NCBI GenBank assembly: GCA_002502135.1
Contig: DAPM01000017.1
Location: forward strand, 5,548-69,547
Origin: an archaeon UBA543
GTDB lineage: Archaea; Undinarchaeota; Undinarchaeia; Undinarchaeales; UBA543
Direction of reading: 5' to 3'
DNA length: 64,000 bases
A program made the translations under genes and the position numbers. Below the pieces are notes generated by a model that ran no database searches, was not told where the DNA came from, and was given only the letters and a program-made list of their open reading frames with translations. Below are positions 8,741 to 49,999 of this stretch, piece by piece (position 1 is the stretch's first letter; the number at the start of each line of letters is the position of its first letter).

Positions 8741-9931
8741 TTGGCAGAGATTTCAAACAGAACAGCTACACTAGGCACTGAAAACGCATTTGTTGTTCTT
8801 GCAGAAGTGAAGAAGCGCATAAAGCAAGGCGACGATATTGTTAATTTTTGTATTGGTCAGCCCGACTTCGATACACCTGATAATATAAAAAAAGCTGCAA
8901 TCAGGGCCATTATCGAAGGGAAAACTGGCTACACACCATCTGCTGGAATTACCGAACTTCGAGAAGCAGCTGCAAAATACTTTTCACGAACAAGGGGCAT
9001 TGAAGTTGATCCAAAACATGTTGCAACAGCTTGCGGAGGCAAACCGTTCATTTACTGGACAATTCTGAGTACAACTGATCACGGGGTTGGTGATGAAATC
9101 CTATACCCAAATCCTGGTTTCCCAATTTACGAATCACAAATCAAAGCATGTGGAGCAGTTCCAGTTGCCCTCCCACTTCGAGAAGAGAACGCATTCTCTT
9201 TCAGTATTGACGACTTAGCAGAGAAAATCACTTCGAAAACCAAAATGCTCATACTCAACTCACCACACAACCCAACTGGCAATGTCCTAAAAAAGCACGA
9301 ACTTAAGGGAATTGCCGACCTTGCTATGGAGCACGATTTTTGGGTGTATTCTGATGAGGTTTACTCCAGTCTGATTTATGATGGCAAGTTTGAGTCAATA
9401 GTTTCAATTCCTGGGATGGAGGAACACACAATAGTTGTGGATTGCGTTTCAAAATCATATGCAATGACTGGTTGGCGTCTTGGTTACGCTTACAACAAGC
9501 ACTTATCAGAGCATTTTGCAAGATGGATGACAAATACTGATTCCTGTGCTTCTCATCCTATCCAATGGGCAGGCGTTGAGGCTTTGAATGGTCCGCAGGG
9601 GCACAGTCAGTTAATGACTGAAAGCTTTAAAGAGCGCCGGAACTTAATTGTTAATGGTTTGAATGAAATGTCTGGTGTTTCTTGCTTATCTCCTGGTGGC
9701 GCTTTCTATGCCTGGCCAAATGTTACTGAAGCTTGCAGAAAGGTTGGAGCAGCGAATTCAGAGGAGTTCAGAAAGATGCTTTTGGATCACGGCGTAGCGG
9801 TTTTGGCCGATACCCACTTTGGTCCTAAGAATCCTGGCCAAGAACAGGAATACATAAGGTTTTCATATGCCACTTCACAAGAAGAAATCAGTGAAGGGCT
9901 TAAAAGAATGAAGGAATTTGTGGAAAAATGA
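8741..9931 (+). CDS. Aspartate/aromatic aminotransferase (class I, PLP-dependent)
   Basis: 396 aa. Motifs NFCIGQPDF, NSPHNPTG and SKSYAMTGWRLGY (PLP lysine). Confidence 0.85.
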   Translation: MAEISNRTATLGTENAFVVLAEVKKRIKQGDDIVNFCIGQPDFDTPDNIKKAAIRAIIEGKTGYTPSAGITELREAAAKYFSRTRGIEVDPKHVATACGGKPFIYWTILSTTDHGVGDEILYPNPGFPIYESQIKACGAVPVALPLREENAFSFSIDDLAEKITSKTKMLILNSPHNPTGNVLKKHELKGIADLAMEHDFWVYSDEVYSSLIYDGKFESIVSIPGMEEHTIVVDCVSKSYAMTGWRLGYAYNKHLSEHFARWMTNTDSCASHPIQWAGVEALNGPQGHSQLMTESFKERRNLIVNGLNEMSGVSCLSPGGAFYAWPNVTEACRKVGAANSEEFRKMLLDHGVAVLADTHFGPKNPGQEQEYIRFSYATSQEEISEGLKRMKEFVEK

Positions 9932-11880
9932 AAAAATATTCAGTTGAAGAACTTGAAAATGCAGCAAAAGAAATGCGGGCTTATATGCTAGTTGCTCTCC
10001 ATGCTGCTGGTTCCGGCCACTCAGGTGGATCACTTTCTTGTATGGATCTTGTTGCAGCAGCTTATCTGAATGTAATGAATCACGATCCAAAAAACCCAAA
10101 ACTGGAAGACCGCGACCGTTTCTTATTCTCTGCAGGACACAAAGCACCTGCACTTTATGCAGCCCTTGGCTACTCAGGTTATTTTGATATCAAAGATTTA
10201 ATGAAGCTCAGAAAACTGGAAAGCCCTTACCAGGGACACCCACACTGGCTCAAACTTGAAGGTGTTGAAGCTTCAACTGGCTCGCTTGGTCAGGGTTTGA
10301 GTATTGCTATTGGGTTCGCACTCAGGGCAAAACTTGACAAAAAGGATTACAGAATTTACTGCTTAATGGGTGATGGTGAGCAACAGGAAGGACAAGTTTG
10401 GGAAGCTGCAATGGAAGCTTCGCATTACAAATTGGGCAATTTAACAGCAATTGTTGATGTTAATAATCTCCAAATTGACGGAAACGTTTCAGATGTTATG
10501 ACTATTCAGCCTCTGAAAGAAAAATACGAGTCTTTTGGCTGGAATGTTATTGAAATTGACGGGCACGATATGCAGCAGATTGTGGATGCTTATTCAAAAA
10601 CAGCAACAGACAAACCTACAGTTATTCTTGCAAAAACAGTAAAAGGCAAGGGCGTTTCCTTTATGGAAGACCAGGCTGGATGGCATGGTAAAGCTCCAAA
10701 CAGGGAAGAACTTGAAACAACTCTCAAAGAACTCGGCGTAGAACTTCCAATTGACGATCTTTTGAAAATTGCGCAGGATTATCAGGCAAAAATGGATAAG
10801 AAAGTGGCTGATATGATTCCGAAATTCTCCAAAAACTACTGGTGGAATGAACAGGACAATATGAAAGCAGAAATGAAGCCAACCAGAAAAGGATTTGGTG
10901 AATGTCTGGCAGAAATCGGCGATGACGAGAGAATTGTCTGCCTGGGTGCGGATATTTCAGGATCAATTTGTATTAATCAGTTCAACAAAGACAAACCAGA
11001 ACGCGACAACCGCTTTTTGAGTATGGGAATTGCAGAGCAGAGTGGAACAGCAGTTGCAGCAGGACTTGCAAAAGAAGGAAAGATTCCGATTTTCGGAACT
11101 TATGCTGTTTTCTCAGCTGGAAGAGCACTTGACCAGATCAGAACAACTGTTTGTTATGGAAATTTCAATGTTAAGATCACTGGAGCTCACGGCGGTGTCT
11201 CAGTTGGACCAGATGGTGCAACCCACCAAGCACTGGAAGATATTTTCCAGATGTGTGGTTTGCCAAACATGAATGTGTTTGTGCCTTGCGATTCTGTAGA
11301 AACCAAGAAAGCATCTAACGCAATGATTCTTGATGTTGAAGGGCCTTGTTATATCCGATATGCAAGAGAATCAACTCCAATTATTTCAACTGAAGATACT
11401 CCTTACAAGTCCGGAACAGCGAACGTAATCCGATACAGGGGGGCAAAAGATAATTTCATTGAAGCTTTTGAAACCAAATTAGCAAGTGATTACAATTCAG
11501 AAAATGAAGACTTGACAATTGTGGCCTGCGGTCCTGAAGTACCAGAAGCAATGCGAGCTGCCTGGATTCTGAAAGGAGAATTCGGACTTGAAACCAGAAT
11601 TATCAACATGCACACCTTAAAACCACTTGACACAGACGCACTCACAGCAGCTGGAAAAGAAACTAAAATAATCATAACTGCTGAAGAACACCAGAAAGGC
11701 GGACTTGGAAACCTGGTTGCTGCAGCACTACTTGAAGCTGGTGTTGCTCCAGAAAAGTTCGCAATGATTGGAGTTCCTGATAGGTTCGGCGAATCTGGTG
11801 GTTCCTGGGAATTAGTCAAGTATTTCAGGCTTTCTGCAGAGTTTATTGCTCAAAAAGCAAAAGAGCTTGCAGGGAAATAA
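9928..11880 (+). CDS. tkt: Transketolase (fused N/C full-length form)
   Basis: 650 aa. TPP site GSGHSGGSLS...GDGEQQEG, followed by pyrimidine-binding and C-terminal domains. Confidence 0.9.
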   Translation: MKKYSVEELENAAKEMRAYMLVALHAAGSGHSGGSLSCMDLVAAAYLNVMNHDPKNPKLEDRDRFLFSAGHKAPALYAALGYSGYFDIKDLMKLRKLESPYQGHPHWLKLEGVEASTGSLGQGLSIAIGFALRAKLDKKDYRIYCLMGDGEQQEGQVWEAAMEASHYKLGNLTAIVDVNNLQIDGNVSDVMTIQPLKEKYESFGWNVIEIDGHDMQQIVDAYSKTATDKPTVILAKTVKGKGVSFMEDQAGWHGKAPNREELETTLKELGVELPIDDLLKIAQDYQAKMDKKVADMIPKFSKNYWWNEQDNMKAEMKPTRKGFGECLAEIGDDERIVCLGADISGSICINQFNKDKPERDNRFLSMGIAEQSGTAVAAGLAKEGKIPIFGTYAVFSAGRALDQIRTTVCYGNFNVKITGAHGGVSVGPDGATHQALEDIFQMCGLPNMNVFVPCDSVETKKASNAMILDVEGPCYIRYARESTPIISTEDTPYKSGTANVIRYRGAKDNFIEAFETKLASDYNSENEDLTIVACGPEVPEAMRAAWILKGEFGLETRIINMHTLKPLDTDALTAAGKETKIIITAEEHQKGGLGNLVAAALLEAGVAPEKFAMIGVPDRFGESGGSWELVKYFRLSAEFIAQKAKELAGK

Positions 11881-19697: not shown

Positions 19698-22013
19698 ATG
19701 CAGATTGTAGTACTAGCTGGCGGATTGGCAACACGTATGAGACCGGTTACAGAGACCATTCCAAAAGCAATGATTCAGGTCAATGGCAAGCCTTTTCTGG
19801 AGCACCAGATTAAACTATTCCGAAGGAACGGAGTTACTGATATTATCTTGTGTGTTGGATACAGGGCTCAGCAGATAAAGGATTATTTCGGGGACGGCTC
19901 TAAATTCGATGTCAGAATCCGCTACAGTGACGAAGGAGACAACCTAAAAGGCACAGCAGGCGCTCTAAAGCAAGCAGAAGCGCTTCTGGATGACGAATTC
20001 CTTGTGATTTATGGAGATTCTTTTCTCACAACCAATTTTCAGGATGTAATTGATCATTTTAACAAGAATGACAAGTCAGCTCTTTGCACTGTTTACAAAA
20101 ACGATTTAGAATATCACAAAAACAATATGCAGGTTGCAGACGGGATGATTGTAAAGTACGACAAAACTGCTCAGACACCTGAAATGAAGCATGTTGACTA
20201 CGGACTTTCTATTCTCAGAAAATCAATATTGGATTCAATTCATCCTGATCGTGTAATCCAACTTGACGAAATATTCCAAACTCTAATCGCTAACAAGGGG
20301 TTACTTGCTTACGAAGTTTCTGACAGGTTTTATGAAATTGGTGAACCTGAAGGACTTAAACAGTTTGAGGATTATTTGAAGAGTAAAGACGAAACTACAA
20401 AAGCTTCAGGATGTGCTGGGTGTCCAAAATCAAGAATGTGCGGTACTGGGGTTCAGACTTCTTTTGAGCACAAGCGAGTTGAAACAATTGTTGGGCTTCC
20501 TGATAGTGTTGGAAAAGGGAAAAGTATCAAGAAGGTTCTGTTAATCTTTCCACACAGGATAAGTTTTTCCGGATACAAAGAGGATTTATCTCCTCCAATG
20601 GGCATGGCTTGTCTTGGTGCAGTTCTGGAAAACGCAGGATATGAAGTTAAAATTATTGATGCTGCAGCAGAGGATTTCAACCATTCTGAAAAAATTAATG
20701 ACAACATGGTACGGCTCGGAATAAGTATGGAAGACTTGAAACAGAGAATTACAGACTATCATCCTGATTTTGTTGGGGTGTCTTGTCTTTTCACAGCTCA
20801 GATCAAGACTGTTCTTGAAATCTGCAAGTCAATTAAGGAAGTTGATCCAAGTGTTCCTGTTGCAGTTGGTGGTTCTCATCCATCCGCTTTGCCTGAGCAG
20901 TCACTCAAATCACAATTCTTGGATTATGTAATCATTGGAGAAGGTGAATACACTTGCCGAGAGCTTCTCAACAAGCTGAAAACCAATGAGTCAGTTTCTG
21001 ATATTGACGGTTTTGCCTGGAAAGAAGACGGCAAGATTCACGTAAATCCTAAAACAAAATTTATAGAAGACATTAATGAGCTTCCTGAGCCAGCAAGGCA
21101 CTTACTGCCTATGAAAACATATTTTGACATTAATCTACCTCAGTGCGGAACCTCTCTCAAGAGACCGAACACTACAATTGCAACTTCAAGGGGGTGCACA
21201 GGCAACTGTGTGTTCTGTGCAACTACAAAACTCTGGGGAAGACGGTTCAGGCCGTTTGCAGTTGAGCGAGTTCTGGATGAAATGGAGACACTAATCAAGG
21301 ATTACGGAATTAAGGAGTTCCAATTTATTGACGACAACCTCACACTCAACAAAGAACGTGCAATGAAGATTTTCCAGGGAATGATTGACCGAAAATTCAA
21401 TATTGTCTGGAATACTCCGCAAGGTATAGCAATCTGGGCACTGGATAATGAGCTTCTGGACAAAATGAAAGAATCTGGGTGCTACGAAATCACAATTGCT
21501 GTTGAGAGCGGAGACCAGGATGTTCTTACTAACATAATCCACAAGCCAACAAACCTTTCAAAAGTTGAGGGAATTGTAAAACATGCAAAGAAACTCGGCT
21601 TGATTGTGAAAGGATACTTTGTTGTAGGATTCCCGGGTGAAAAGAAATGGCAGATGCAGAAAACTTTTGATATTGCAAAAGACTTGAAGTTTGATGCAGC
21701 TGGAATTTTCATTGCAACACCACTTCCAGGCACACAATTATACAAACAATGCAAGGAAAAAGGGTATCTTCGCCCTGGTTTTGATTTTGAACGTGTGAAT
21801 TATGGAGTTGGAAATATTATTACTCCAGATTTCAAGCCTGAAGAAATCGAGCAGATGGTTTCAGAAAATATTATCAAAATCAACATGGCTCTCTTGTACA
21901 GAAATCCTTGGAAGTTTGCAAAGAAGTATTTCCAGCTTGTTAAGCGAAATCCAAGAGTTATGTTTGATTATATGGGCTTCTTATGGAAGAAAGCAAGGAG
22001 GAAGAAATCATAA
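19698..22013 (+). CDS. Fusion protein: sugar-1-phosphate nucleotidyltransferase (N-terminal) plus cobalamin-binding radical SAM enzyme (C-terminal)
   Basis: 771 aa. The N-terminus MQIVVLAGGLATRMRPVTETIPKAMIQVNGKPFLEHQI is a G-x-G-x-R NTP-transferase fold (HddC/RmlA-like). The middle region is a B12-binding Rossmann (VLLIFPHRISFSGY...VIIGEGEY). Then comes ATSRGCTGNCVFCATT, the CxxxCxxC radical-SAM cluster. Confidence 0.8.
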   Translation: MQIVVLAGGLATRMRPVTETIPKAMIQVNGKPFLEHQIKLFRRNGVTDIILCVGYRAQQIKDYFGDGSKFDVRIRYSDEGDNLKGTAGALKQAEALLDDEFLVIYGDSFLTTNFQDVIDHFNKNDKSALCTVYKNDLEYHKNNMQVADGMIVKYDKTAQTPEMKHVDYGLSILRKSILDSIHPDRVIQLDEIFQTLIANKGLLAYEVSDRFYEIGEPEGLKQFEDYLKSKDETTKASGCAGCPKSRMCGTGVQTSFEHKRVETIVGLPDSVGKGKSIKKVLLIFPHRISFSGYKEDLSPPMGMACLGAVLENAGYEVKIIDAAAEDFNHSEKINDNMVRLGISMEDLKQRITDYHPDFVGVSCLFTAQIKTVLEICKSIKEVDPSVPVAVGGSHPSALPEQSLKSQFLDYVIIGEGEYTCRELLNKLKTNESVSDIDGFAWKEDGKIHVNPKTKFIEDINELPEPARHLLPMKTYFDINLPQCGTSLKRPNTTIATSRGCTGNCVFCATTKLWGRRFRPFAVERVLDEMETLIKDYGIKEFQFIDDNLTLNKERAMKIFQGMIDRKFNIVWNTPQGIAIWALDNELLDKMKESGCYEITIAVESGDQDVLTNIIHKPTNLSKVEGIVKHAKKLGLIVKGYFVVGFPGEKKWQMQKTFDIAKDLKFDAAGIFIATPLPGTQLYKQCKEKGYLRPGFDFERVNYGVGNIITPDFKPEEIEQMVSENIIKINMALLYRNPWKFAKKYFQLVKRNPRVMFDYMGFLWKKARRKKS

Positions 22014-22046: not shown

Positions 22047-23027
22047 ATGATCATAACACAAACCCCACTCAGAATAACACTCGGCGGAGGAGGCACAGAT
22101 TTAGCTTCCTATTACTCAAAACACACAGGATTCCTGATAAGCGCTGCAATCGACAAGTATGTTTACATTAGTTTGCACAAGACTTTTGACAAGGATATTA
22201 CAGCCCACTATTCAAAACATGAGAAAGTTTCAAATGTTGCAGAATTACAGCACCCCATCATCATGGAAGCACTCAAACTCACAGGAATCGAGAGTGGTAT
22301 AGAGGTTTCCAGCATGGCAGACATCCCAGCAGGAACAGGATTAGGTTCTTCCGGATGTTTCACAGTCGGACTTCTGAATGCACTTCACACTTCTAAAAGA
22401 GAAAAATTATCTTCACACGAGCTAGCAGAAGAGGCTTGCAAAATCGAAATTGATCTTCTAAAAGAGCCAATTGGCAAGCAGGATCAGCACGCTTGTGCTA
22501 CAGGGGGCTTGACTGCATTCACTTTTGAGAAAGACGGCACTGTCAAAGCAGAGCCAATGAAAGTTTCCCAGAAAACAATGAATGCACTGGAAGACAATCT
22601 CTTACTTTTCTTTACAAATTACTCCAGAAGTGCTTCAGGTATTCTGAAAGAGCAGGATGACAAGAGCAAACAGGATGAAGATGAAATGATTCAGAACCTG
22701 CACAAAGTCAAAGAGCTTGGTGTTGAGAGCAAGCTTGCACTTGAATCTGGAAATCCTGACAAGCTTGGAGAATTAATGCACATTCACTGGGAGAACAAGA
22801 AAAAACGCTCAGGTTCAATGAGTAATCCTAAAATTGACAAATGGTACAACATTGCAATGGAGAATGGTGCTCTTGGCGGAAAACTGGTTGGCGCTGGCGG
22901 AGGCGGATTCCTGATGTTCTACGCAAATGACAAAGAGAAGCTTCGGGAAGCAATGCGCAAGGAAGGTTTGAGTGAGGTCAGGTTCAGATTCGACTTTGAT
23001 GGTTCTAAAGTATTGGTGAATGTATGA
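22047..23027 (+). CDS. GHMP-family sugar kinase, HddA-like (D-glycero-alpha-D-manno-heptose-7-phosphate kinase-like)
   Basis: 326 aa. MIITQTPLRITLGGGGTDL is the HddA-type N-terminus; the GHMP motif PAGTGLGSSG is present. Confidence 0.7.
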   Translation: MIITQTPLRITLGGGGTDLASYYSKHTGFLISAAIDKYVYISLHKTFDKDITAHYSKHEKVSNVAELQHPIIMEALKLTGIESGIEVSSMADIPAGTGLGSSGCFTVGLLNALHTSKREKLSSHELAEEACKIEIDLLKEPIGKQDQHACATGGLTAFTFEKDGTVKAEPMKVSQKTMNALEDNLLLFFTNYSRSASGILKEQDDKSKQDEDEMIQNLHKVKELGVESKLALESGNPDKLGELMHIHWENKKKRSGSMSNPKIDKWYNIAMENGALGGKLVGAGGGGFLMFYANDKEKLREAMRKEGLSEVRFRFDFDGSKVLVNV

Positions 23028-24904: not shown

Positions 24905-25516
24905 TTGATAATAATGGATAATGTAGAGTATATCAACAAATACTTTTCCGAAATGAAAGATGTTATTGGAAACATCTCTGCGGAAGACACAGCTGGGGTA
25001 GTTAATGCGCTATTCACAGCCTGGAAAAACGGAAACCAAGTATTCCTAATTGGAAACGGTGGTTCTGCAAGCACAGCCACTCACATGGCATGCGACCTAA
25101 ACAAGTGCACAATTGTTGAGGGAAAACCTCGAATGAAAGCTCTTGCACTGGTTGACAATATTCCAGTAGTCAGCGCACTTACAAATGACGACGGCTGGGG
25201 TGAAATTTATGTTGAACAGCTTAAGAATTTCTTTAAAACAGGTGATGTTGTTATTGCTTTTAGTGTTCACGGCGGATCTGGAAGCGACAAGGCAGGTGCC
25301 TGGTCACAGAACCTTTTGAAAGGACTGCAGTATGCAAAAGATAATGGCGGAGTTGCAATTGGAATCTCCGGGTTTGACGGCGGAGCAATGAAGCAAATGG
25401 CAGACCACTGCATTGTAGTGCCTGTGGAATCAACACCACACACCGAATCACTGCATTTAGCAATCGAGCATCTCATTACAAACTGCTTGAAGGAGAAAAT
25501 AATCAACCAAGCATGA
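24905..25516 (+). CDS. gmhA: SIS-domain sedoheptulose-7-phosphate isomerase (GmhA-like), copy 1
   Basis: 203 aa. FLIGNGGSASTATHMACDL is the GmhA signature. Confidence 0.75.
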   Translation: MIIMDNVEYINKYFSEMKDVIGNISAEDTAGVVNALFTAWKNGNQVFLIGNGGSASTATHMACDLNKCTIVEGKPRMKALALVDNIPVVSALTNDDGWGEIYVEQLKNFFKTGDVVIAFSVHGGSGSDKAGAWSQNLLKGLQYAKDNGGVAIGISGFDGGAMKQMADHCIVVPVESTPHTESLHLAIEHLITNCLKEKIINQA

Positions 25517-26118
25517 AAAGAGCAGTTTTCCTTGACAGAGATGACACAATAAATAAGTCAATTTACATTTCAGATGAGAACAGGATTGAGAGTCCTCTAA
25601 AACCAGAGGAATTCGAACTGTTTTCAACAGCAGGAGACGCAATCAAAATCTTCAATGAACTTGGATTCCTGGTAATTGTGGTCACAAATCAGCCCGCAAT
25701 TGCAAAAGCAAAAACAACAGTTGAACTAGTTGATCAAATTCACGAAAAAATGAAAGCAGATCTTGAAGCTCAAGGCACTCAGGTGGATGAGGTTTACTAT
25801 TGCCCTCACTCAGAACCTGGAAAAGGAAAAATCCCTGAGTTTACAAAAATCTGTGACTGCAGAAAGCCTGGACAAGGTATGTTTTTGCAGGCAAAAGAGA
25901 GATTCGATATTGACATGGAAAATTCATATATGATAGGTGATAGCTGGCGAGATATTAAAGTTGGAAATTCGCTAGGCTGCACTACATTTAAAGTCGATCA
26001 TTCAATGATCGAAACTCATAGTGATTTAATCACAGAACAGCTAAATAATCCAGATCACAAGGTTAAGGATTTATATGAGGCTGCATTACTAATCAAAAAC
26101 TTAGAGGAGAAAAAATAA
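25513..26118 (+). CDS. gmhB: D-glycero-D-manno-heptose-1,7-bisphosphate phosphatase (HAD, GmhB-like)
   Basis: 201 aa. FLDRDDTIN (DxDxT), VVTNQ, and CPHSEPGKGKIPEFTKICDCRKP (GmhB Zn-binding Cys/His insert). Confidence 0.75.
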   Translation: MKRAVFLDRDDTINKSIYISDENRIESPLKPEEFELFSTAGDAIKIFNELGFLVIVVTNQPAIAKAKTTVELVDQIHEKMKADLEAQGTQVDEVYYCPHSEPGKGKIPEFTKICDCRKPGQGMFLQAKERFDIDMENSYMIGDSWRDIKVGNSLGCTTFKVDHSMIETHSDLITEQLNNPDHKVKDLYEAALLIKNLEEKK

Positions 26119-26119
26119 A

Positions 26120-26773
26120 ATGGACATTTATATAGACACTGCAAATCTTGAAGAAATAAAAAACGCTGTTGATATGGGCATCATAGATGGGTGCACAACC
26201 AATCCAGCAATTGTTGCCAAAGAGGGATGTGAATTTGAAAGCAGGATGAAGGAAATCCTTGCACTTGTCAAAGGCCCTGTCAGCATTGAAGTTACTACAA
26301 TTGATGTTGACACAATGGTTGAAGAAGCTGTAAAGTATTCAAAATGGGGCGACAATGTTGTTGTCAAAATCCCTATGGATGCAAACGGGCTTCGCGCAAC
26401 AAAAATCCTAACGGAAAAAGGCATCAAAACTAATGTGACCTGTTGCATGAGCTCAACTCAGGCAGTTCTGGCTGCAAAAGCAGGAGCAACATACGTTTCT
26501 CTGTTCTACGGCAGAATCGCTGACATGGGTTATGATGCAATGTACGAACTTGCAGATGCTGTAAATATTTTTGAACATTCTGGATTTGAATCCAAGATTA
26601 TTGCAGGAAGCCTAAGATCTGTTGCTGATGTTATGACAGCAATCCGCGCAGGAGTGCACATAGTTACTGTTCCGCCTGCATCTCTTAACAAAATGTACGT
26701 TCACCCAAGAACAAAAGAAACTATCCAGGAATTCCTGGACTTCTGGGCTGACTACAAGAAAAAACATAAGTGA
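26120..26773 (+). CDS. Transaldolase / fructose-6-phosphate aldolase (short TalC/FSA type)
   Basis: 217 aa. Begins MDIYIDTANLEEIK with the Schiff-base-lysine region VVVKIP. Confidence 0.8.
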   Translation: MDIYIDTANLEEIKNAVDMGIIDGCTTNPAIVAKEGCEFESRMKEILALVKGPVSIEVTTIDVDTMVEEAVKYSKWGDNVVVKIPMDANGLRATKILTEKGIKTNVTCCMSSTQAVLAAKAGATYVSLFYGRIADMGYDAMYELADAVNIFEHSGFESKIIAGSLRSVADVMTAIRAGVHIVTVPPASLNKMYVHPRTKETIQEFLDFWADYKKKHK

Positions 26774-40686: not shown

Positions 40687-41381
40687 TTCTTTTTCTTTAG
40701 GAAGTCACTTCTAACAGATCTGTGCTGCATAATGAAATATGCAAACCAATACAGGTTGCCTACAACAGCCAGGCCCCATAACACCAGGTAAAGCTGGTTT
40801 AGCAGAGCCCCAACAGCAATAATGTTAATGTGCCACTGCCTTGCATAGAAGAATAGATTGTACCATTTCCCAAACCCGCTAAATTTCTTTTTAACTACTT
40901 TGTGTGGGATTTGGTTCAAGGTATAAAATCTTGCTGTGACATAAAATACTGTGAAGAAGTAAAGGCTGGCAAGTCCGAGAATCCAGATGTGAGTTACTGG
41001 ATAAATTCTGTATGCGCCAATTGTAATTGCAATTATCAGAAGTGGATCGAGTATTAAGTCAAGTGCCGAATCAAGATATCCGCCGTAATAGCTGGATTCT
41101 TTCCTGCATCTTGCAAGTTCGCCATCACAAAGATCAAGAATGTATCCGAATTCAAGCAGAACAGCTCCCCAGATCAGACATTTCCAAACTCCTGTTGTGA
41201 AAAGAGCAGCTCCTGCCATGCAAAACAAGAAACCGATAACAGTAACCTGATTTCCAGTAAGCGAAGTATGATTGTAAAGGAATGGAGTTATCCTTCTTGA
41301 GATTTTCCTGTGAACCCAATGAGTTATTAACTGGTCATTCTCCCTGTCAGGAACATCTTTTGTAGTGATTTTCTTTTTCAT
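40683..41381 (-). CDS. CDP-alcohol phosphatidyltransferase-family membrane enzyme
   Basis: 232 aa. DLCDGELARCRKESSYYGGYLDSALDLILD matches the D-G-x2-A-R-x8-G-x3-D-x3-D signature. Confidence 0.75.
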   Translation of the reverse strand: MKKKITTKDVPDRENDQLITHWVHRKISRRITPFLYNHTSLTGNQVTVIGFLFCMAGAALFTTGVWKCLIWGAVLLEFGYILDLCDGELARCRKESSYYGGYLDSALDLILDPLLIIAITIGAYRIYPVTHIWILGLASLYFFTVFYVTARFYTLNQIPHKVVKKKFSGFGKWYNLFFYARQWHINIIAVGALLNQLYLVLWGLAVVGNLYWFAYFIMQHRSVRSDFLKKKK

Positions 41382-43047: not shown

Positions 43048-43152
43048 ACAAAACAGGTGTTTGAATTGGGTATTTTAAGGTTATGCAAGTTTATAGCACC
43101 GAATAGTTTATCACAACCTTAATAACCACTTTTCAGAACACAATTCTTACAA

Positions 43153-43629
43153 ATGGTTAATACAAGTGAGTTTCTCGCTAAACTTTCAGAACTTGGATAC
43201 AATTTCTACGCTGGAGTACCTTGCTCTATTTTCAAAACTCTAATCAGCCAGCTAGAATCTGGAGATAATTACACACCAGTTACTCGAGAGGATGAAGGTC
43301 TTGGATTATGCACAGGGGCTCAGCTAGCTGGAAAGAAGCCTGTAATGGTTATGCAGAATTCCGGTCTTGGAAATTCAATTAATGTTCTGTCTTCACTGCT
43401 TCTACTCTACAAAATCCCGACACTCATGCTGATCAGCTGGAGGGGCGAGACAAAAGAGGATGCTCCTGAGCATTGGGTAATGGGAGAATCAATGACTAAA
43501 CTGCTTGATTCAATTGGTGTTCCGTATTTTATTTTTGAAACACTTGAGGATATGGAAAAAGCTAATGCAAAACTGACTGAAACAAACCAGCCAGTTGCAG
43601 TTATTTTCAAAAAGGGGTCACTTGAATGA
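43153..43629 (+). CDS. Phosphonopyruvate (or sulfopyruvate) decarboxylase, alpha subunit (TPP enzyme, PYR domain)
   Basis: 158 aa. The pattern is like split Ppd/ComD N-terminal halves. Its stop overlaps the start of the beta subunit. Confidence 0.7.
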   Translation: MVNTSEFLAKLSELGYNFYAGVPCSIFKTLISQLESGDNYTPVTREDEGLGLCTGAQLAGKKPVMVMQNSGLGNSINVLSSLLLLYKIPTLMLISWRGETKEDAPEHWVMGESMTKLLDSIGVPYFIFETLEDMEKANAKLTETNQPVAVIFKKGSLE

Positions 43630-44174
43630 AAACACAAGAAGCAGTTGCAAAAATAGTATCTCTTTTGAAAGGGGATGAAGTTATTATTTCTGCTAATGGT
43701 TTTATTTCACGAGAACTTCACGACACTGGCGACAATGAGCGGAATTTCTATATGATTGGCTCAATGGGAATGGGTGCATCAATTGGAGCTGGAATTGCAC
43801 TGAATTCTCAAAAGAAAGTGGTTGTTCTGGATGGCGACGGGAATGTTCTGATGAATCTGGGTGCGCTGGCTACAATTGGCAATAAAAAACCTGAGAATTT
43901 CCTTCATATTGTAATTGACAATGGTGTTTACGAATCAACTGGCTCTCAGAAAACTGTTTCTGCAACAATTGAGCTGGAAAATGTTGCAAAATCAGCTGGA
44001 TACACTACTTGTGTTAAAGTTTCTAATCTTGAAGAACTGGAATCAGCAATTGTCAGCGAGTACACTGGTTCGGTTTTCATTCGAGTAATAGTTGAAGCAG
44101 GCAAAAGAGAAGTTGGCAGAGTGCAGGCAAGCCCGGAAGAAATTGCAAACCGGCTCAGAACTTACCTTCCATAA
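43626..44174 (+). CDS. Phosphonopyruvate (or sulfopyruvate) decarboxylase, beta subunit (TPP-binding)
   Basis: 182 aa. LDGDGNVLMNLGALATIG...IVIDNG is the G-D-G...N-N TPP-binding motif. Confidence 0.75.
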   Translation: MKTQEAVAKIVSLLKGDEVIISANGFISRELHDTGDNERNFYMIGSMGMGASIGAGIALNSQKKVVVLDGDGNVLMNLGALATIGNKKPENFLHIVIDNGVYESTGSQKTVSATIELENVAKSAGYTTCVKVSNLEELESAIVSEYTGSVFIRVIVEAGKREVGRVQASPEEIANRLRTYLP

Positions 44175-44207
44175 CTCTTTTAACCTAAAATCAGGACGTT
44201 CAATTCA

Positions 44208-45830
44208 ATGACCAAGGCTAAAAAGCTCAGAGAACTGTTTGAAAGCAAGGATCTTGTACGGATCGTTGGAGCTCACAATGGACTAACTGCAAAACTTGTA
44301 GAGCTGAACGGTTTTGATGGTGTATGGGCTTCTGGTTTAGAAGTTTCAGCATCCAACGCTGTTCCTGATGCTAATATTCTCACAATGTCTGATTATCTTG
44401 CAGCAGCAGCCAGCATGAATGATGCTACAAGCATTCCAGTTGTTGTGGACTGCGATACTGGATACGGCAATTCAATGAATGTAATCCGAATGGTGAAGAA
44501 ATTCGAGGATGCCGGAATTGCTGCTGTTTGCATGGAGGACAAGAAATTCCCAAAAACCAACAGTTTGCTTGAAGGCGGGAAACAGGAGCTGGCTCCAATT
44601 GCTGAGTTTGTTGGCAAGATAATGGCTGCTAAGAATGCTCAGGAGTCAGATGATTTTATGGTTATTGCTCGTGTTGAGGCTTTGATTGCTGGCTGGGGAC
44701 AGGAAGAAGCACTCAAAAGAGCTCGCGCTTATGCTGATGCAGGCGCTGATGCAATTTTTATTCACTCAAAAAAGTCTGATCCTAAAGAAATTGAGGATTT
44801 CCTCAAAGCTTGGGACAATTACAAACCAGTTGTGTTGGTTCCAACAAATTATCCTAGCTTCACAGAAGCTCAGATGAAGCAGTATGGTGTGAAACTTGTT
44901 ATTTATGCTAATCACGGAATCCGGACAATTGTAAAACACGTTAATGAAACTCTTGCAGAAATTAAGGAAAAAGGGATTACTGAAATTGATTCTAAAATCG
45001 CTAGCGTGAAAGACCTTTTTGCTTTGCAGGAAATGGATAAATTCAAGGAAGATCAGGACAAGTTTGTCAGAACAAAAGAATCTGTAAAAGCAATTATTCC
45101 AGCTGCTGGGGACAGAAGCGTTGAACCTAGTTTGAAAGAACTTCTACAGGACAGACCACTTACAATGATTGATGTTAATGGAAAGTCAATTCTGCAGAGA
45201 AGTGTTGAGAATCTGAAGCAGTGCGGTGTTGATGACATCAAAGTTATTGGCGGTTACAAGGCAGAGCATGTTGTTGCTGATGATATTAATCTAGTTGTGA
45301 ATGAGGCATATGCTGACGGGCATATTATGGATTCAATTTCAAAAGCTGGAGAGGAATATGCTGAAAAGAATCTGATAATCTACTCTGACATTATTTTCGA
45401 AACAGAAATTCTTGATAAATTGCTAAAAACTGACAAGGATATTACACTTGTAATTGACAGTTCTGTTAGAAAGTCTGAAGTCAGGTCTGATATTGATCTT
45501 GTAATTGCTGAAAAGCCTCCTTTGGACGGCGAGAGAGTGATTAATGTTAATAAAGAGAATAAAATTCTGAACATTGGAAAGGATTTGGACAGAGAGAAGG
45601 CAAAACACGAGTTTGTTGGAATAGTTCTGCTTTCAAAAATTGGAATGCAGAAGCTGATGCAGGTTTACAAGGATGCTGGAGATCAGAAAATGGGTCTCTG
45701 CACTGCGATTCAGAAGCTTATTGATTCTGGTGAGGCTGTTAATTCACTTGAAATCAGCAGAGGGTGGAGTGAAATTCACGATTTTGAAGATTATAAGAAA
45801 GTTTCTGAGATGTTGGCTACTGAAAATTAA
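44208..45830 (+). CDS. Phosphoenolpyruvate phosphomutase (PepM) fused to a C-terminal nucleotidyltransferase domain
   Basis: 540 aa. The N-terminal ~290 aa belong to the ICL/PEP-mutase superfamily and carry the PepM-diagnostic EDKKFPKTNS (EDKX5NS). The C-terminal ~230 aa are AIIPAAGDRS...IDVNGKSIL, an NTP-transferase fold. Confidence 0.85.
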   Translation: MTKAKKLRELFESKDLVRIVGAHNGLTAKLVELNGFDGVWASGLEVSASNAVPDANILTMSDYLAAAASMNDATSIPVVVDCDTGYGNSMNVIRMVKKFEDAGIAAVCMEDKKFPKTNSLLEGGKQELAPIAEFVGKIMAAKNAQESDDFMVIARVEALIAGWGQEEALKRARAYADAGADAIFIHSKKSDPKEIEDFLKAWDNYKPVVLVPTNYPSFTEAQMKQYGVKLVIYANHGIRTIVKHVNETLAEIKEKGITEIDSKIASVKDLFALQEMDKFKEDQDKFVRTKESVKAIIPAAGDRSVEPSLKELLQDRPLTMIDVNGKSILQRSVENLKQCGVDDIKVIGGYKAEHVVADDINLVVNEAYADGHIMDSISKAGEEYAEKNLIIYSDIIFETEILDKLLKTDKDITLVIDSSVRKSEVRSDIDLVIAEKPPLDGERVINVNKENKILNIGKDLDREKAKHEFVGIVLLSKIGMQKLMQVYKDAGDQKMGLCTAIQKLIDSGEAVNSLEISRGWSEIHDFEDYKKVSEMLATEN

Positions 45831-46972
45831 AGCAATTTCTCAGCTGCTTCAACAATTTTTCTAGGTTCTAATTCAACAAGGCACTTCCTGTCCTTGCAAT
45901 TAAAATAATTAGCAGTAAAAGAATCAACACAAGGAATACAAGCCAAGTCTTTTTTCACAACAATAACTTTCTCACCATAAGGTTTTGCTTTTTCAGAATC
46001 TGTAGGACCGAAAATACTAACTACTGGAATTCCAAGTGCTGCTGCAAGATGCCCAGGCCCAGTATCTGTGCTAATGAAAATATCACAATTCTTAATCAAA
46101 GCAGCTGTTTCTGGAATAGTTTTGTCAAAGAACATCAACGGTTTCTCTTGCATCATTGCGTGAATACTCTTGCCAGCATGAGCTTCTTCTGGCCCACCAA
46201 CTATCATAATCTTTGTATTATGCTTCTTGGCAAGTTCAGTACATGCTTCTGCAAAGCCATGCTGAGTCCACTGTTTGTATTTGGTTTCATGAACTGAGCC
46301 GGTGTGCACGCCAATAAGTTTCTGACCTTCACCAAGTCCTCTGGATTTCAGAAGGTTTCGAGCACCATATACTTTAGCGTCTGGCAATTCAAGTTTAATA
46401 CTTCTGTCAATTTCTTTTTCACCAAGCATTTTAGCAATATCCAAATTCACATCAACACAGTGCTTGCTAGTGCTTTTAACAACAATATTTGAGAAAACTC
46501 CTGATTTGAAGAACCCGACGTTCTGCTCAACTCCAATCATTTTCTTTGCTCCAATGAATTTTGTAGCTACCCCGCTGAACTTTCCGCTTGGGTATGTTAG
46601 AATTGAAAGATCGAATTTTCTTTTTCCAAGTTCTTTCATGAATTTTCTTTTCTTGAAAATCCCTCTATGCTCTTCTGGATTGAAGAAAACAATATCGTCC
46701 ACTAGTTTGTTTGCCTGCATTAATTCAACAACTGGTTTGTATGAAGCAAGCAGAGTGATTTTTGCAGTTGGAAACCTTTTTCTTAAAGTTTTGAGCAAAG
46801 GAATTGAAAAAATCATATTTCCCAAGCCCATCAGGTTTACAACAACAATATTCTGAAAATTCTCATCAACTGGTCTGCTTCTTGCAAATAACAAATCCCA
46901 CGGAATCAAGAATTTCAAGGCTAGTATGTTCTCAAACATTCTAACATGCAAAGGAATTTTTATTTTAGACAT
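45827..46972 (-). CDS. GT9 family heptosyltransferase-like glycosyltransferase
   Basis: 381 aa. IVVVNLMGLGNMIFSIPLLKTLRKRFP is the GT9 N-terminal motif. C-terminal HTGS...GGPEE... GT-B half is also present. Confidence 0.7.
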   Translation of the reverse strand: MSKIKIPLHVRMFENILALKFLIPWDLLFARSRPVDENFQNIVVVNLMGLGNMIFSIPLLKTLRKRFPTAKITLLASYKPVVELMQANKLVDDIVFFNPEEHRGIFKKRKFMKELGKRKFDLSILTYPSGKFSGVATKFIGAKKMIGVEQNVGFFKSGVFSNIVVKSTSKHCVDVNLDIAKMLGEKEIDRSIKLELPDAKVYGARNLLKSRGLGEGQKLIGVHTGSVHETKYKQWTQHGFAEACTELAKKHNTKIMIVGGPEEAHAGKSIHAMMQEKPLMFFDKTIPETAALIKNCDIFISTDTGPGHLAAALGIPVVSIFGPTDSEKAKPYGEKVIVVKKDLACIPCVDSFTANYFNCKDRKCLVELEPRKIVEAAEKLL

Positions 46973-46973
46973 T

Positions 46974-47432
46974 TTAAAGTTTTGAAATTATGTCTGTTGT
47001 TGAATCACAATCAACTAACTTCAATATTTCCAGTCTTCCGCCATATTCTTCTAAAGCTTTTTTCTCAGGAACTTGTTCTGGGGTATAATCTCCGCCTTTA
47101 GCTTGGATTCCTGGTTTCAGCTCGCGGATAAGCTGTTCTGGAGTGTTTTCATCATAAATCACAACATAATCCACGCTTTCTAGGGAATCAAGCACTTCAG
47201 CTCGCTGATCCTGCTGAATTAATGGTCGTTTCTCACCTTTCAACTTTTTAACTGATGCATCGCTGTTCAGTCCAACAATCAGAACATCTCCGAGTTCTCT
47301 GGCTTCTTTCAAATAGCGAATATGACCAATATGCAGAATATCAAAACAACCATTAGTGAAAACTACTGTTTTCCCTGCTGTTTTCAGCTGGTCTACAGTC
47401 TGTTTTGCATCTTCTCTTGACAAAACACTCAT
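46974..47432 (-). CDS. D-beta-D-heptose-1-phosphate adenylyltransferase (HldE domain II / RfaE2-like)
   Basis: 152 aa. TNGCFDILHIGHIRYL...IVGLNSD...KGGDY...CDSTTDIISK is collinear with the E. coli HldE C-terminal domain. Confidence 0.8.
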   Translation of the reverse strand: MSVLSREDAKQTVDQLKTAGKTVVFTNGCFDILHIGHIRYLKEARELGDVLIVGLNSDASVKKLKGEKRPLIQQDQRAEVLDSLESVDYVVIYDENTPEQLIRELKPGIQAKGGDYTPEQVPEKKALEEYGGRLEILKLVDCDSTTDIISKL

Positions 47433-48349
47433 TTTAGAGCCTCCCTCAGGTCGATTTTGTGAACGCGCCTCTTCCCAATAACAAAACCAGCTGCTTTGTT
47501 AGCCAGTTTTGCAGATTCAAGATCATTTATTCCAGATGCAAGAGCAACAGCAAGCACTGCAGCAACAGTATCTCCAGCTCCTGTAACATCATAAACCTCT
47601 TTAGCTTCTACTGGAATTTGTTCTGCAGTTCCATTTGAAACAAGCATCATTCCTTCTGCTCCCATTGTCATCAAAACTTTGCAGTTCAGCTTTTCTGAAA
47701 GTGTTTTTCCGATTTCTTCAGAAGTGCTGTTCTCAGAATTAACAATTTCTCTGGATTCTTTTAAGTTCGGAGTAATAATTTCAACTCCTTTGAAAATTTC
47801 AGCATTAACTGGTTTTGGATCCACAAGCACTTTCTTTCCAGTTTGCTTTGCAGCTTCCACAATTTTATCAGTCATAACACCTTTTGCATAATCTGAAAGA
47901 ACAATTATGCTGGCGTCTCCTGCTTTTTCTGAAATAGCAGATATGATTTTATCCTCATCCTCTTCACTGATTTTGTCTTTTTTTTCAGTATCAATTCTGA
48001 GCAACTGCTCTAACTCACTAGTTACAATCCTTTTCTTAACAGTTGTAGGACGGTTTTTGTCAATTATAATTGAGTCAGCCGTTATTCCGCTGGATTTGAT
48101 AAGTTCTGCAAGCTCTTTGCCTTCTGAATCATCACCAATAACACCAACCAGCTCTGCTTTTGCTCCAAGCTCAACAATATTTTTTGCAACATTTGCAGCT
48201 CCGCCAAGAACATCCTTTATTTTCTCTTTGTTAAAAACCGGTACAGGAGCTTCTGGTGAAATCCTACTTGCATCTCCAATAACATATCTGTCCAGCATTA
48301 AGTCTCCAATAATAAGTACTTTGACTGATTCTGGTTTCAGCTCGCTCAT
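47429..48349 (-). CDS. D-beta-D-heptose-7-phosphate kinase (HldE domain I / RfaE1-like, PfkB family)
   Basis: 306 aa. IIGDLMLDRYVIGDASRISPEAPVPV...GGAANVAKN matches HldE domain I. C-terminal DVTGAGDT is the PfkB motif. Confidence 0.75.
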   Translation of the reverse strand: MSELKPESVKVLIIGDLMLDRYVIGDASRISPEAPVPVFNKEKIKDVLGGAANVAKNIVELGAKAELVGVIGDDSEGKELAELIKSSGITADSIIIDKNRPTTVKKRIVTSELEQLLRIDTEKKDKISEEDEDKIISAISEKAGDASIIVLSDYAKGVMTDKIVEAAKQTGKKVLVDPKPVNAEIFKGVEIITPNLKESREIVNSENSTSEEIGKTLSEKLNCKVLMTMGAEGMMLVSNGTAEQIPVEAKEVYDVTGAGDTVAAVLAVALASGINDLESAKLANKAAGFVIGKRRVHKIDLREALK

Positions 48350-48888
48350 TCAAGCGCCTCGCAAATTTCATGAAGTATGAAAGCGTGCATTTCTTGAATT
48401 CGTGGAACCTGATCTGATTGCACCTGAATACCAAGATCGCATTCTCCAGCAAGTGTTCCGACATTTCCTGTCAATGCAATTGTCTTTATTCCAAGTGATT
48501 TTGCTTTCTGAGCAGCTTTAACAACATTCTCAGAAGTTCCGCTTGTGCTAATCACAATTAAAACATCTCCTTGCTTGCCTAGAGCTTCAACCTGCCTCTC
48601 AAAAACTTTGTCATAACCATAATCATTGGAAATTGCTGTCATAACAGCAGTGTTAGCATTAAGAGAAATTCCTTCAAGGGGCTTCCTGTCGCTTTTGTAC
48701 TTGCAAACCAGTTCTGCAATAAAATGGTTAGCATCAGAAGCAGATCCGCCATTACCGCAAGCAAGAACTTTGTGCCCAGCCAGGTGGCACTCTTTAATTG
48801 CATTTACTGCATTCTGCACCTGATCTTTCAGGCCAATAGCGCTTCGCGCCAGGCTTGCTAAATTTTCTGCTCGCTCTTCAAATGTCAT
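48346..48888 (-). CDS. gmhA: Sedoheptulose-7-phosphate isomerase GmhA (SIS), copy 2
   Basis: 180 aa. LACGNGGSASDANHF...ISTSGTSENV. Confidence 0.8.
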   Translation of the reverse strand: MTFEERAENLASLARSAIGLKDQVQNAVNAIKECHLAGHKVLACGNGGSASDANHFIAELVCKYKSDRKPLEGISLNANTAVMTAISNDYGYDKVFERQVEALGKQGDVLIVISTSGTSENVVKAAQKAKSLGIKTIALTGNVGTLAGECDLGIQVQSDQVPRIQEMHAFILHEICEALE

Positions 48889-49009
48889 AGTTTTAGAACT
48901 CCTGATTTTGTTATTTAAAGTTAATGAAAGGCTAATTTATCTTGAAGTGGCAGAAAATCCATGTTTTCAAATCACTCAGACCGCTTCAAGATTCACCCAG
49001 GAAATAGAA

Positions 49010-49029
49010 CCCCGGCCGTTAGGTCGGGG
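49010..49029 (-). terminator. Candidate stem-loop terminator downstream of the 49046..49999 gene
   Basis: CCCCGGCC-GTTA-GGTCGGGG hairpin, 17 nt after the stop of the minus-strand gene and followed by a T-rich stretch on the transcribed strand. Confidence 0.3.
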
Positions 49030-49045: not shown

Positions 49046-49999
49046 TTATCTGATTCCTGCGCGTATTTTGCTCTTCAAACCGCTCCCAATCTTCGAGTAA
49101 GCAGAAGCAGCTAATTTCAATGAACTACTAGAGTAAACACGAGTGTAATCAGCAATTTCACCACCCCAGCCTAGTTTGAAGTTTCGGATTCCCTCAATTC
49201 CGGCTCCCAACATGTCGTATTTCTTAAAACCATTTTCATAAGCCCATTTTATTATATGCCACTGGATTACATTATTTGGATACAATTTTGCAAGTTCTCC
49301 CTTGATCGATGCACCTGTCCAATAATAAATTGTTTTTCCAGAGTGCGGGAAAGCAGCACAGCCTATTGTTTTTCCCTGATACTTTGCAAATAAGAGTTTG
49401 ATCTGGTTCTTTGCATGCAAGCCCTGGATTATTTTCTTGTAAAATTCTTTTGGAAGTGGATTATAGTCGCTTGCAGAGTAGGTTTCCATTAGCATTTTGT
49501 AATAAGTTTCAATTGCTTCATCAGAATAATCTTCTTCAATTGTTACTCCATCCTTCTCAGCTTTGTTAACGCAGTATCTGTGCCCTTTTTTGATTATTTT
49601 GAAGTGCTCCTCAGCACTTGGTTGATTGAATTTTGTAATAATTGTCTGAGCTGTTTCAGAAGAGCCGAAATCTGTCTGAGTTCCAGGTGGAAGTATCATG
49701 AAAAAGTTTCCAGCTTCTTTTTTGAGTTGTTTGAGCTTGCTGTTAATATCAGAATCTTTTGAAACAATGCCAAGGTATGCTGTTTCTGTTCCGAAAATCG
49801 GTGAGAATCCAATCTCCACTGGCCCCATCTTTTTTCTGAAAATCGGGCAAATAGCATTTTTAAAAACAGCAATTTCGCATTTAGTTCCTAGACTTTCTAA
49901 TGCAGACAACCATTCATAAGAATGGAAAGGCGTTGCTTGCTCAAGCTGACTATATTCTTCAACAAGTTCCTTTGCTTCTTCAAGTGTTTTGATTTCCAT
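49046..49999 (-). CDS. FemAB-like / GNAT-fold (Acetyltransf_6-like) aminoacyl- or acyl-transferase candidate
   Basis: 317 aa. Two-lobed GNAT-like pattern with a conserved ...QWHIIKWAYENGFKKYDMLGAG... C-terminus, as in FemAB/BioF2-like proteins. The assignment is tentative. Confidence 0.4.
   Translation of the reverse strand: MEIKTLEEAKELVEEYSQLEQATPFHSYEWLSALESLGTKCEIAVFKNAICPIFRKKMGPVEIGFSPIFGTETAYLGIVSKDSDINSKLKQLKKEAGNFFMILPPGTQTDFGSSETAQTIITKFNQPSAEEHFKIIKKGHRYCVNKAEKDGVTIEEDYSDEAIETYYKMLMETYSASDYNPLPKEFYKKIIQGLHAKNQIKLLFAKYQGKTIGCAAFPHSGKTIYYWTGASIKGELAKLYPNNVIQWHIIKWAYENGFKKYDMLGAGIEGIRNFKLGWGGEIADYTRVYSSSSLKLAASAYSKIGSGLKSKIRAGIR

Follow-up and report, generated by a model that had tools for sequence, protein, structure and literature searches.

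A 64-kb stretch of DNA from the marine Undinarchaeales (DPANN) archaeon UBA543 (contig DAPM01000017.1), hereafter the window, carries on its minus strand four consecutive genes in the order gmhA-hldA-hldC-GT9, which combine three enzymes of ADP-heptose synthesis with a glycosyltransferase of the GT9 family. This resident operon probably makes ADP-D,D-heptose and feeds it to a GT9 enzyme, a variant with Asn at the position of the catalytic Asp, which decorates a lipid-linked surface glycan. In the proposed route, sedoheptulose-7-phosphate provided by transketolase and transaldolase would be converted by GmhA to the 7-phosphate of D-glycero-D-manno-heptose, the PfkB-type HldA would phosphorylate C1 to yield the beta-1,7-bisphosphate, and a single GmhB, encoded in another heptose gene set of the window, would take off the 7-phosphate. 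The HldC step would then give ADP-D,D-heptose, no 6-epimerase being evident, and the co-transcribed GT9, an inverting GT-B enzyme, would attach the heptose in alpha linkage. Its most plausible acceptor is not lipopolysaccharide (LPS) but a lipid-linked oligosaccharide, which after flipping would serve the AglB oligosaccharyltransferases in the surrounding glycan island, a region that encodes a flippase, a GT4 initiating-type enzyme and GT2 glycosyltransferases besides two AglB proteins.

The four open reading frames (ORFs) encode proteins of 180, 306, 152 and 381 amino acids, and the coordinates and motifs reported for them in a preliminary description of this DNA proved exact and verbatim, respectively. 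The first operon gene, gmhA (48346..48888), specifies the sedoheptulose-7-phosphate isomerase GmhA, and is followed by genes for an HldA-type PfkB heptose-7-phosphate kinase (47429..48349), an HldC-type heptose-1-phosphate adenylyltransferase corresponding to HldE domain II (46974..47432) and a GT9-family GT-B glycosyltransferase, a putative ADP-heptose-dependent heptosyltransferase with Asn52 and a C-terminal Cys4 motif (45827..46972). The gmhA/kinase and kinase/nucleotidyltransferase (NTase) junctions are 4-nt overlaps, the NTase and GT9 genes are separated by a 1-nt gap, and the 3' end of the GT9 gene overlaps by 4 nt with a convergent phosphoenolpyruvate (PEP) mutase gene. The spacer upstream of gmhA measures 157 nt, and a TATA-like element, TTTAAATA (48912..48919, minus strand), precedes the gmhA ATG by 24-31 nt and is read from the sequence as a candidate archaeal promoter. 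Just past the upstream FemAB-like gene lies a terminator-like element, a GC-rich hairpin with a T-rich run after it (49001..49029, minus strand), whose RNA fold has a minimum free energy of -21.2 kcal/mol (z = -3.69 as compared to shuffles). Both elements would fit an independent archaeal transcription unit, with the hairpin presumably bounding the operon on its 5' side.

Among reference genomes, two Candidatus Undinarchaeota metagenome-assembled genomes (MAGs) come closest, with kinase identities of 72% and 80%. Both MAGs keep the FemAB-like gene, GmhA, the kinase, the NTase and GT9, followed by the convergent PEP mutase, and the four operon proteins share 66-83% amino acid identity with their MAG orthologs. 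Pairwise comparison of these genes gives dN/dS ratios of 0.10-0.23 at a dS of ~1, the GT9 gene falling at 0.16-0.23. Chance ORFs can be regarded as excluded because of homology E-values of 1e-55 to 1e-100, the synteny in these two other genomes and these dN/dS ratios. By the same measure, the operon genes are under purifying selection and the module is a resident, selected part of Undinarchaeota genomes. Identical proteins are also present on marine metagenome contigs, TARA samples among them.

The three biosynthetic enzymes are recognizable by family models, structural matches and retained catalytic residues. GmhA scores 185.2 bits with TIGR00441, which is still the top family (DiaA 131.7) although its cut-off of 209.45 is not reached, and 186 with PRK13936. 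Its best structural match is the C. jejuni GmhA structure 1TK9 (157.6 bits), the alignment with which reveals that the catalytic Glu and His are kept (HFIAEL/HFAAEL and RIQEMHAFILH/RIQEMHILIIH), and the JGI label for the gene is D-sedoheptulose 7-phosphate isomerase. The kinase carries VLIIGDLMLDRY...SRISPEAPVPV verbatim as well as TGAGDT, the PfkB GAGD anion-hole motif, and matches rfaE_dom_I (TIGR02198) at full length (7-300 to 6-306 of 315) with 335.4 bits for a cut-off of 345. It scores 198 bits with B. cenocepacia HldA (4E84), with which its N-terminal signature GDxMLDRY...RISPEAPVPV aligns residue for residue, and its predicted product is the beta-anomeric 1,7-bisphosphate. The 152-aa NTase, which carries TNGCFDILHIGH...NSD...KGGDY verbatim and FDILHIGH as its HxGH/HIGH motif, passes the rfaE_dom_II model (TIGR02199) with 204.7 bits (cut-off 181.5) and matches Burkholderia HldC (5X9Q) with 114.5 bits. 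On NCBIfam PRK11316, the model of bifunctional HldE, kinase residues 7-301 correspond to HldE 9-308 and NTase residues 2-151 to HldE 321-470 of 475. The kinase and NTase hence cover consecutive parts of this model, which bears out the collinearity with E. coli-type HldE that had been proposed. A beta (ADP-type) route with HldE split in two genes was likewise upheld, since rfaE_dom_II scores above its cut-off and HldA and HldC are the best structures.

The step between kinase and NTase calls for GmhB, heptose-1,7-bisphosphate 7-phosphatase, whose HAD-IIIA gene (25513..26118, plus strand) belongs to the other heptose set. The presence of GmhB at this position was confirmed, as every HAD-IIIA/GmhB motif is intact, including the DxDxT nucleophile, TNQ, the CDCRKP lysine, GDxxxD and the CxH...CxC zinc loop. 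The protein scores 138.7 bits with the beta-type model NF006506 (cut-off 178) vs 87.9 with the alpha-type NF050049, and 95.8 with E. coli GmhB, and the HAD-IIIA domain models are passed. Among the window ORFs of at least 140 aa, GmhB is the sole HAD phosphatase. Because it is encoded in the other heptose set, GmhB must serve both routes, if both operate. The adjoining gene (26120..26773, plus strand) encodes a short transaldolase/FSA-family enzyme (TIGR00875 226.9 bits, PF00923 170), which is the likely supplier of sedoheptulose-7-phosphate, with a transketolase (9928..11880, plus strand), matched by Pfam Transketolase_N, Transket_pyr and Transketolase_C, as context. Genes for triosephosphate isomerase, phosphoglycerate kinase, archaeal glyceraldehyde-3-phosphate dehydrogenase (GAPDH), an aminotransferase and this full-length transketolase (5133-11880, plus strand) directly adjoin the glycan island, and together with the transaldolase at 26120 would supply sedoheptulose-7-phosphate locally.

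As to the stereochemistry of the product, HldD was sought among the three short-chain dehydrogenase/reductase (SDR) epimerases of the window, and none has HldD as its best match. The SDR at 54096-55028 was rejected as HldD because it scores 251 bits with the UDP-glucuronic acid 4-epimerase 6ZL6 vs 85 with HldD 3SXP, and the other two because their best models are dehydratase/LegB. Since the HldD search was negative, an L-glycero product is not predicted, and of the L/D-glycero product named in the preliminary description the L-glycero form is not retained. The SDR at 54096-55028 (plus strand) lies near a gene for an AglM-type UDP-glucose 6-dehydrogenase (50895-52184, plus strand; 519.7 bits, cut-off 670), and a UDP-glucuronic acid 4-epimerase homolog along with such a dehydrogenase predicts galacturonic acid in the glycan.

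The GT9 protein, which carries LMGLGNMIFSIPLL verbatim, matches Pfam PF01075 with 94 bits (gathering cut-off 22). With the equivalogs for HepI/II/III (WaaC, WaaF and WaaQ) it scores 61.9-104.9 bits, far under the cut-offs of 134.6-569. Its AlphaFold model, based on 57 sequences, has a pLDDT of 90 and a pTM of 0.88, the N-terminal ~30 residues being less confident. A fold search with this model placed the Veillonella GT9 3TOV, 1PSW and 2H1H at the top, with WaaF, WaaC and TibC after 3TOV. On the donor side, K233, D303 and H308 are equivalent to WaaC K192, D261 and H266; K233 is kept in at least 90% of aligned GT9 sequences, and D303 and H308 are invariant. The protein thus shares with WaaC, WaaF and 3TOV the GT9 family, the GT-B fold (TM-score of 0.73-0.80 to 3TOV) and the donor-side Lys, Asp and His, but differs from them by Asn52 in place of Asp13, an additional N-terminal extension of ~40 residues and the Cys4 motif at the C-terminus. 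The N-terminal extension is a weak candidate for a membrane anchor and is not claimed as one: its maximal 19-residue hydropathy is 1.32, when transmembrane segments usually reach about 1.6, and the helix 8-20 is modelled at a pLDDT of ~50. An LPS acceptor is by inference implausible, because the host is archaeal and no lipid A or Kdo (3-deoxy-D-manno-oct-2-ulosonic acid) genes were seen in the window; the HepI/II/III enzymes act on Kdo2-lipid A or heptosylated core, and Kdo2-lipid A cannot exist in an archaeon. Of the earlier assignment to the LPS heptosyltransferase family, the GT9 family part is therefore retained on the basis of Pfam and fold, and the LPS-type part is not, given the HepI/II/III cut-offs and the absence of the catalytic Asp.

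The Cys4 motif of GT9 (C345, C348, C359, C364; CxxC...C....C) is kept in 80-95% of both Asn and Asp types; E. coli WaaC has it only in part, with Cys at the first aligned position and Gly at the second. A precedent for a non-LPS acceptor is the heptosyltransferase TibC, which uses ADP-D,D-heptose and whose Cys4 'iron-finger' binds Fe (PMC4358343). TibC/AAH enzymes (BAHT) have a C-lobe Cys4 with a similar CxxC...C...C layout and are among the fold matches of the window GT9. However, the latter is only weakly similar to them, with 19 bits for TIGR04414 and a TM-score of ~0.53, and is without the N-terminal beta-barrel or beta-hairpin thumb, and TibC retains the Asp base (D110) where the window GT9 has Asn.

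Several points weigh against the operon acting as proposed. GmhA and HldA fall just under their NCBIfam equivalog cut-offs, the GmhB gene is located outside the operon, 20 kb away, and the lineage is uncultured, with its biochemistry entirely inferred. The Arg that in related NTases confers CDP/UDP-heptose synthesis is not strictly needed for CTP/UTP use, as summarized in PMC11461863 from Tang et al. 2024. In the GT9 itself, the position of the WaaC catalytic base D13 is Asn52, with Asn in all Undinarchaeota orthologs. In a review (PMC5713226), D13 is stated to be universal in heptosyltransferases, and the WaaC D13A exchange to lower activity 4688-fold. No residue compensating for Asn52 was found, as 61 Asn-type and 99 Asp-type domains exhibit no other discriminating column. 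Lastly, one bacterial Asn-type homolog is located in an exopolysaccharide (EPS) cluster (Wzx/Wzy/Wzz), with heptose genes absent within 8 kb.

The distribution of the Asn state was surveyed in representatives of clusters at 50% identity, the 150 closest being taken. The catalytic position reads Gly-x-Gly-Asn in 61 aligned domains and Asp in 111. In a rough neighbour-joining tree, calculated without bootstraps, the group of the query comprises 70 domains, 52 of them Asn-type, and outside it Asn-type domains number 9 of ~97. GT9 orthologs as such are confined to Undinarchaeales (~70% identity), the next matches being at ~30%; one named Asn-type representative is a Calescamantes bacterium. The Asn state is, as judged from this survey, not a private defect of the window protein. 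All GT9 structures among the PDB matches are Asp-type; the large Asn-type subgroup is without a solved structure, and no characterization of it was found in the literature. Because the bacterial Asn-type homolog, which adjoins an Asp-type GT9, sits in a Wzx/Wzy/Wzz cluster, the acceptors of the Asn-type subgroup are suggested to be lipid-linked repeat units and not lipid A, and the same cluster leaves the donor of the subgroup unproven. Many of the best GT9 matches (P0215-P0219, P0221 and others) are proteins of 650-820 aa with two matched stretches, either tandem GT9-GT9 or GT9 fusions, and in several of them the domain with the better match has Glu as its catalytic residue.

It is conceivable on these grounds, though unlikely, that activated heptose is made and used elsewhere, and that the Asn-type GT9 is not a heptosyltransferase, having another donor or being non-catalytic. 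The Asn in place of the catalytic base and the heptose-free neighbourhood of the EPS-cluster homolog would favour this explanation, and non-enzymatic proteins with a GT9 fold do exist, chloroplast NDH subunits being among the fold matches. It is countered by the packing of GT9 directly after hldC in three lineages with dN/dS of 0.16-0.23, by the conservation of the donor-site residues K233, D303 and H308, and by the invariance of Asn in 61 related domains, a sign of a functional state under selection and not of decay.

The second alternative concerns the nucleotide. Going by PMC11461863, a summary of Tang et al. 2024, Arg at position 5 of the motif (F/L)XXGXSTT, designated STTR5, confers CDP/UDP-heptose synthesis; this definition was taken from that summary and cross-checked in the alignment on FEHDRSTT of Burkholderia HldC. 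The window NTase has LVDCDSTT at this motif, the motif Gly being replaced by Cys, and position 5 is Asp in the window protein, Ala in the L008 ortholog and Asp in the L007 ortholog, the STTR5 Arg being absent. ADP-heptose is hence the expected product. That the NTase makes CDP- or UDP-heptose instead of, or besides, ADP-heptose has a slim chance only. NTP promiscuity is documented in the family, as far as the same summary goes, CDP- or UDP-heptose formation having been shown by Tang et al. for some enzymes of archaea and bacteria, and STTR5 is not a strict requirement, as noted above; this is opposed by the lack of Arg in all three orthologs, by the passing of the curated adenylyltransferase model and by the partner GT9 family, which is known only with ADP-heptose donors. 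Burkholderia HldA/HldC (4E84, 5X9Q) and the stand-alone 'HENase' of Tang et al., the latter as summarized, likewise consist of a separate kinase and an NTase of ~150-160 aa with the same motifs. The difference lies in Arg at motif position 5 of Burkholderia HldC, where the window NTase has Asp, and in the window host, which is archaeal and without LPS.

The third alternative, that the module was recently acquired from bacteria or is a bacterial fragment binned by mistake, is very improbable. It could be argued from the bacterial-type enzymes and from the closest non-Undinarchaeota homologs, which include bacteria at ~47% identity. However, the operon shares its contigs with AglB, archaeal GAPDH and HTH_10 genes and has the same neighbours in three Undinarchaeota lineages. 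Archaeal markers of the window include two AglB/STT3 genes, an archaeal-type GAPDH, TruD, DUF371 and the HTH_10 regulator, and proteins at least 90% identical in NCBI nr are labelled Candidatus Undinarchaeales, in agreement with the archaeal assignment made at the outset. The composition is unremarkable: when compared to the other 55 window genes, the four genes have GC z-scores of -1.2 to +1.4 and length-corrected codon-usage residuals with z within 0.75, the lone deviation being a slightly low GC content at third codon positions in the kinase gene (z = -2.1). The kinase is equidistant from named homologs in DPANN and in bacteria, with Kimura distances that all fall at 0.86-1.08. The horizontal transfer from bacteria suggested in the preliminary description thus did not hold up, as GC, third-position GC and codon usage are normal and a donor is not identifiable from the kinase distances. 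There is no evidence in composition or distances for a recent transfer, and an ancient inter-domain transfer is neither shown nor excluded by these measures.

The remaining alternative, that the 152-aa protein is a TagD-type glycerol-3-phosphate cytidylyltransferase and the PfkB protein a ribokinase (CDP-glycerol or ribose chemistry), is hardly credible, its one support being the JGI label 'glycerol-3-phosphate cytidylyltransferase' on the Undinarchaeota orthologs of the 152-aa protein, against which stand the operon shared with GmhA and GT9 and the scores in both curated models (TagD TIGR01518 49.5 bits, cut-off 165, vs 204.7; ribokinase 103 vs 335.4) and PDB ranking (TagD structures 38-43 and T. 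volcanium 3GLV 56 for the NTase, 60.6 for the best ribokinase structure), 3- to 4-fold lower in bits than those of the heptose enzymes. A grouping of the NTase with TagD and of the PfkB protein with ribokinases had been set beforehand as the outcome that would speak against ADP-heptose; this comparison was run and neither grouping was obtained. The JGI label is, by these scores, a mis-annotation.

The other heptose set is located upstream (19698-26773) and holds, besides GmhB and the transaldolase, two oxidoreductases and three candidate genes of an alpha-type (GDP-type) route. An HddA-like GHMP kinase gene of this candidate set (22047..23027, plus strand), outside the operon, has HddA NF049969 as its top family (176.6 bits over full length, cut-off 600), and its product scores 139-160 bits with the heptose kinases 3K85, 4N3O and 4USK vs 62 with fucokinase. 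A divergent GmhA-like SIS protein (24905..25516, plus strand) scores 87.8 bits with TIGR00441 (cut-off 209) and ~73 with GmhA structures, and has Asp at the catalytic Glu position with the His kept. The candidate HddC-equivalent by model scores is a 771-aa fusion of a sugar-1-phosphate nucleotidyltransferase and a B12-binding radical-SAM protein (19698..22013, plus strand). Its N-terminus scores 106.4 bits with HddC (cut-off 300), Arch_glmU (121) and MurU (119) scoring slightly higher, and the best match of its C-terminus is the Sden_1168 P-methyltransferase family (304.6 bits, cut-off 575). It is plausible that this set forms an alpha-type route to an NDP-heptose, which may be modified further. 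Of the two complete pathways originally postulated, the beta set therefore stands, and the alpha set is plausible only, as each member is under its curated cut-off and the NTase is a fusion with generic best matches. The fusion gene heads the alpha set, and separate B12-radical-SAM/NTP-transferase genes are also found beside HldA/HldC in the Nanoarchaeota locus L013 (10736-12187, 15445-16152 and 16153-17583), so that this association recurs; the B12-radical-SAM enzyme could methylate NDP-heptose or a phosphonate.

The coexistence of two heptose routes resembles that in C. jejuni NCTC 11168, which has an ADP-beta pathway for lipooligosaccharide (LOS) and a GDP-alpha pathway for capsule with a single common GmhB (PMC10680097). 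Both have two GmhA copies, PfkB- and GHMP-type kinases and a single GmhB in only one of two clusters. However, GmhB is found in the ADP/LOS cluster in C. jejuni and in the alpha-type set in the window, whose host is archaeal, whose alpha NTase is fused to a B12/radical-SAM domain and whose alpha set remains under curated cut-offs.

The claim that such a locus is highly unusual could not be sustained, as archaeal heptose enzymes are published, the split pair is present in three other DPANN loci, and stand-alone HldC is very common. In the NTase homolog search, which covered 8000 candidates, at least 7981 matches were obtained at E <= 0.001, and all 120 listed ones are stand-alone proteins of 150-198 aa. 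Functional NDP-heptose enzymes are known from archaea, and of the three architectures defined one is the stand-alone nucleotidyltransferase (PMC11461863, summarizing Tang et al. 2024), a Thermoplasma acidophilum N-glycan contains a heptose (PMC11407970), and heptose names had already been given to window genes by automated pipelines. No description of a GT9 heptosyltransferase in archaea was found in the literature, and the Undinarchaeota genome paper does not mention heptose, glycosylation or phosphonates.

In three other DPANN genomes, the split HldA-type kinase is followed by an HldC-type NTase within glycan clusters (Woesearchaeota GCA_016180135; 'Nanoarchaeota' GCA_043811255 and GCA_034660355). 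B12/radical-SAM and NTP-transferase genes are found nearby, and in one of the three genomes a GT9 gene is situated between AglB and the HldA/HldC pair. Its GT9 is only 24% identical to the window GT9 and has Glu at the catalytic position. Unlike the window operon, these loci have cupin and SDR epimerase genes upstream in place of SIS GmhA, and one has an HAD-NTase fusion. In L011 (6676-9621), L013 (5905-9172) and L014 (8729-11465) the genes specify a cupin (mannose-phosphate-isomerase-like), an SDR epimerase, an HldA-type kinase and an HldC-type NTase, with no SIS-type GmhA nearby, which raises the question of the heptose-7-phosphate source or of a different substrate. In L013, a Nanoarchaeota MAG, a 333-aa HAD phosphatase plus CTP_transf_like protein (8171-9172) directly follows the HldA-type kinase and is apparently a fusion of GmhB and HldC.

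The presence of NDP-heptose enzymes in archaea is thus already published, and to this the window adds little. The operon is however of interest as a compact, conserved and testable module of four small soluble enzymes plus GmhB, since no archaeal heptosyltransferase has been characterized and the genetic basis of the Thermoplasma heptose N-glycan is not established. The Asn-type GT9 subgroup challenges the claimed universality of the catalytic Asp in heptosyltransferases. A bolder proposal, put forward tentatively and with clear doubt, is that the Asn-type GT9 proteins, with Gly-x-Gly-Asn where others have Gly-Asp, constitute a mechanistically distinct heptosyltransferase class without an Asp base, whose window member would be the first archaeal heptosyltransferase and would add alpha-D,D-heptose to a dolichol-linked AglB N-glycan precursor, the glycan also receiving from the alpha set a second heptose with another activation and possibly methylated. 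Physiologically, the greater part of the 64-kb window is taken up by the AglB-centred island, although genomes of this lineage are reported to be small (PMC7414124), which suggests that surface glycans matter for this probable symbiont.

Among the neighbouring genes, a phosphonate biosynthesis set (40683-45830), immediately convergent to GT9, is kept in other Undinarchaeota MAGs. It comprises the PEP mutase, which forms a fusion with a nucleotidyltransferase (44208-45830), phosphonopyruvate decarboxylase split over two genes (43153-43629 and 43626-44174), an iron-containing alcohol dehydrogenase (42094-43047), an NTP transferase (41378-42097) and a CDP-alcohol phosphatidyltransferase (40683-41381). 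Next to it, a nonulosonic-acid set (37019-40686, minus strand) contains a NeuB/PseI-like synthase (37756-38790), a CMP-sugar-type cytidylyltransferase (37019-37759) and a 614-aa protein (38842-40686) with weak Epimerase_2/GT1 matches. Directly upstream of gmhA, and kept in all related contigs, are genes for FemAB-like/GNAT (Acetyltransf_6) and weakly polysaccharide-deacetylase-like proteins (49046-49999 and 49980-50855, minus strand). An Rfam scan of the window gave no matches and a tRNA scan one tRNA-Leu, far from the operon; a 240-aa ORF without family match (3772-4494, minus strand) overlaps this tRNA-Leu(CAG) (4424-4511, minus strand) and is probably not a gene. Finally, the AglB/STT3 genes are tandem paralogs (14153-16435 and 16478-18697, plus strand; 760 and 739 aa), followed by a gene for an LPG_synthase_TM protein, and the presence of two such paralogs implies two N-glycosylation specificities.

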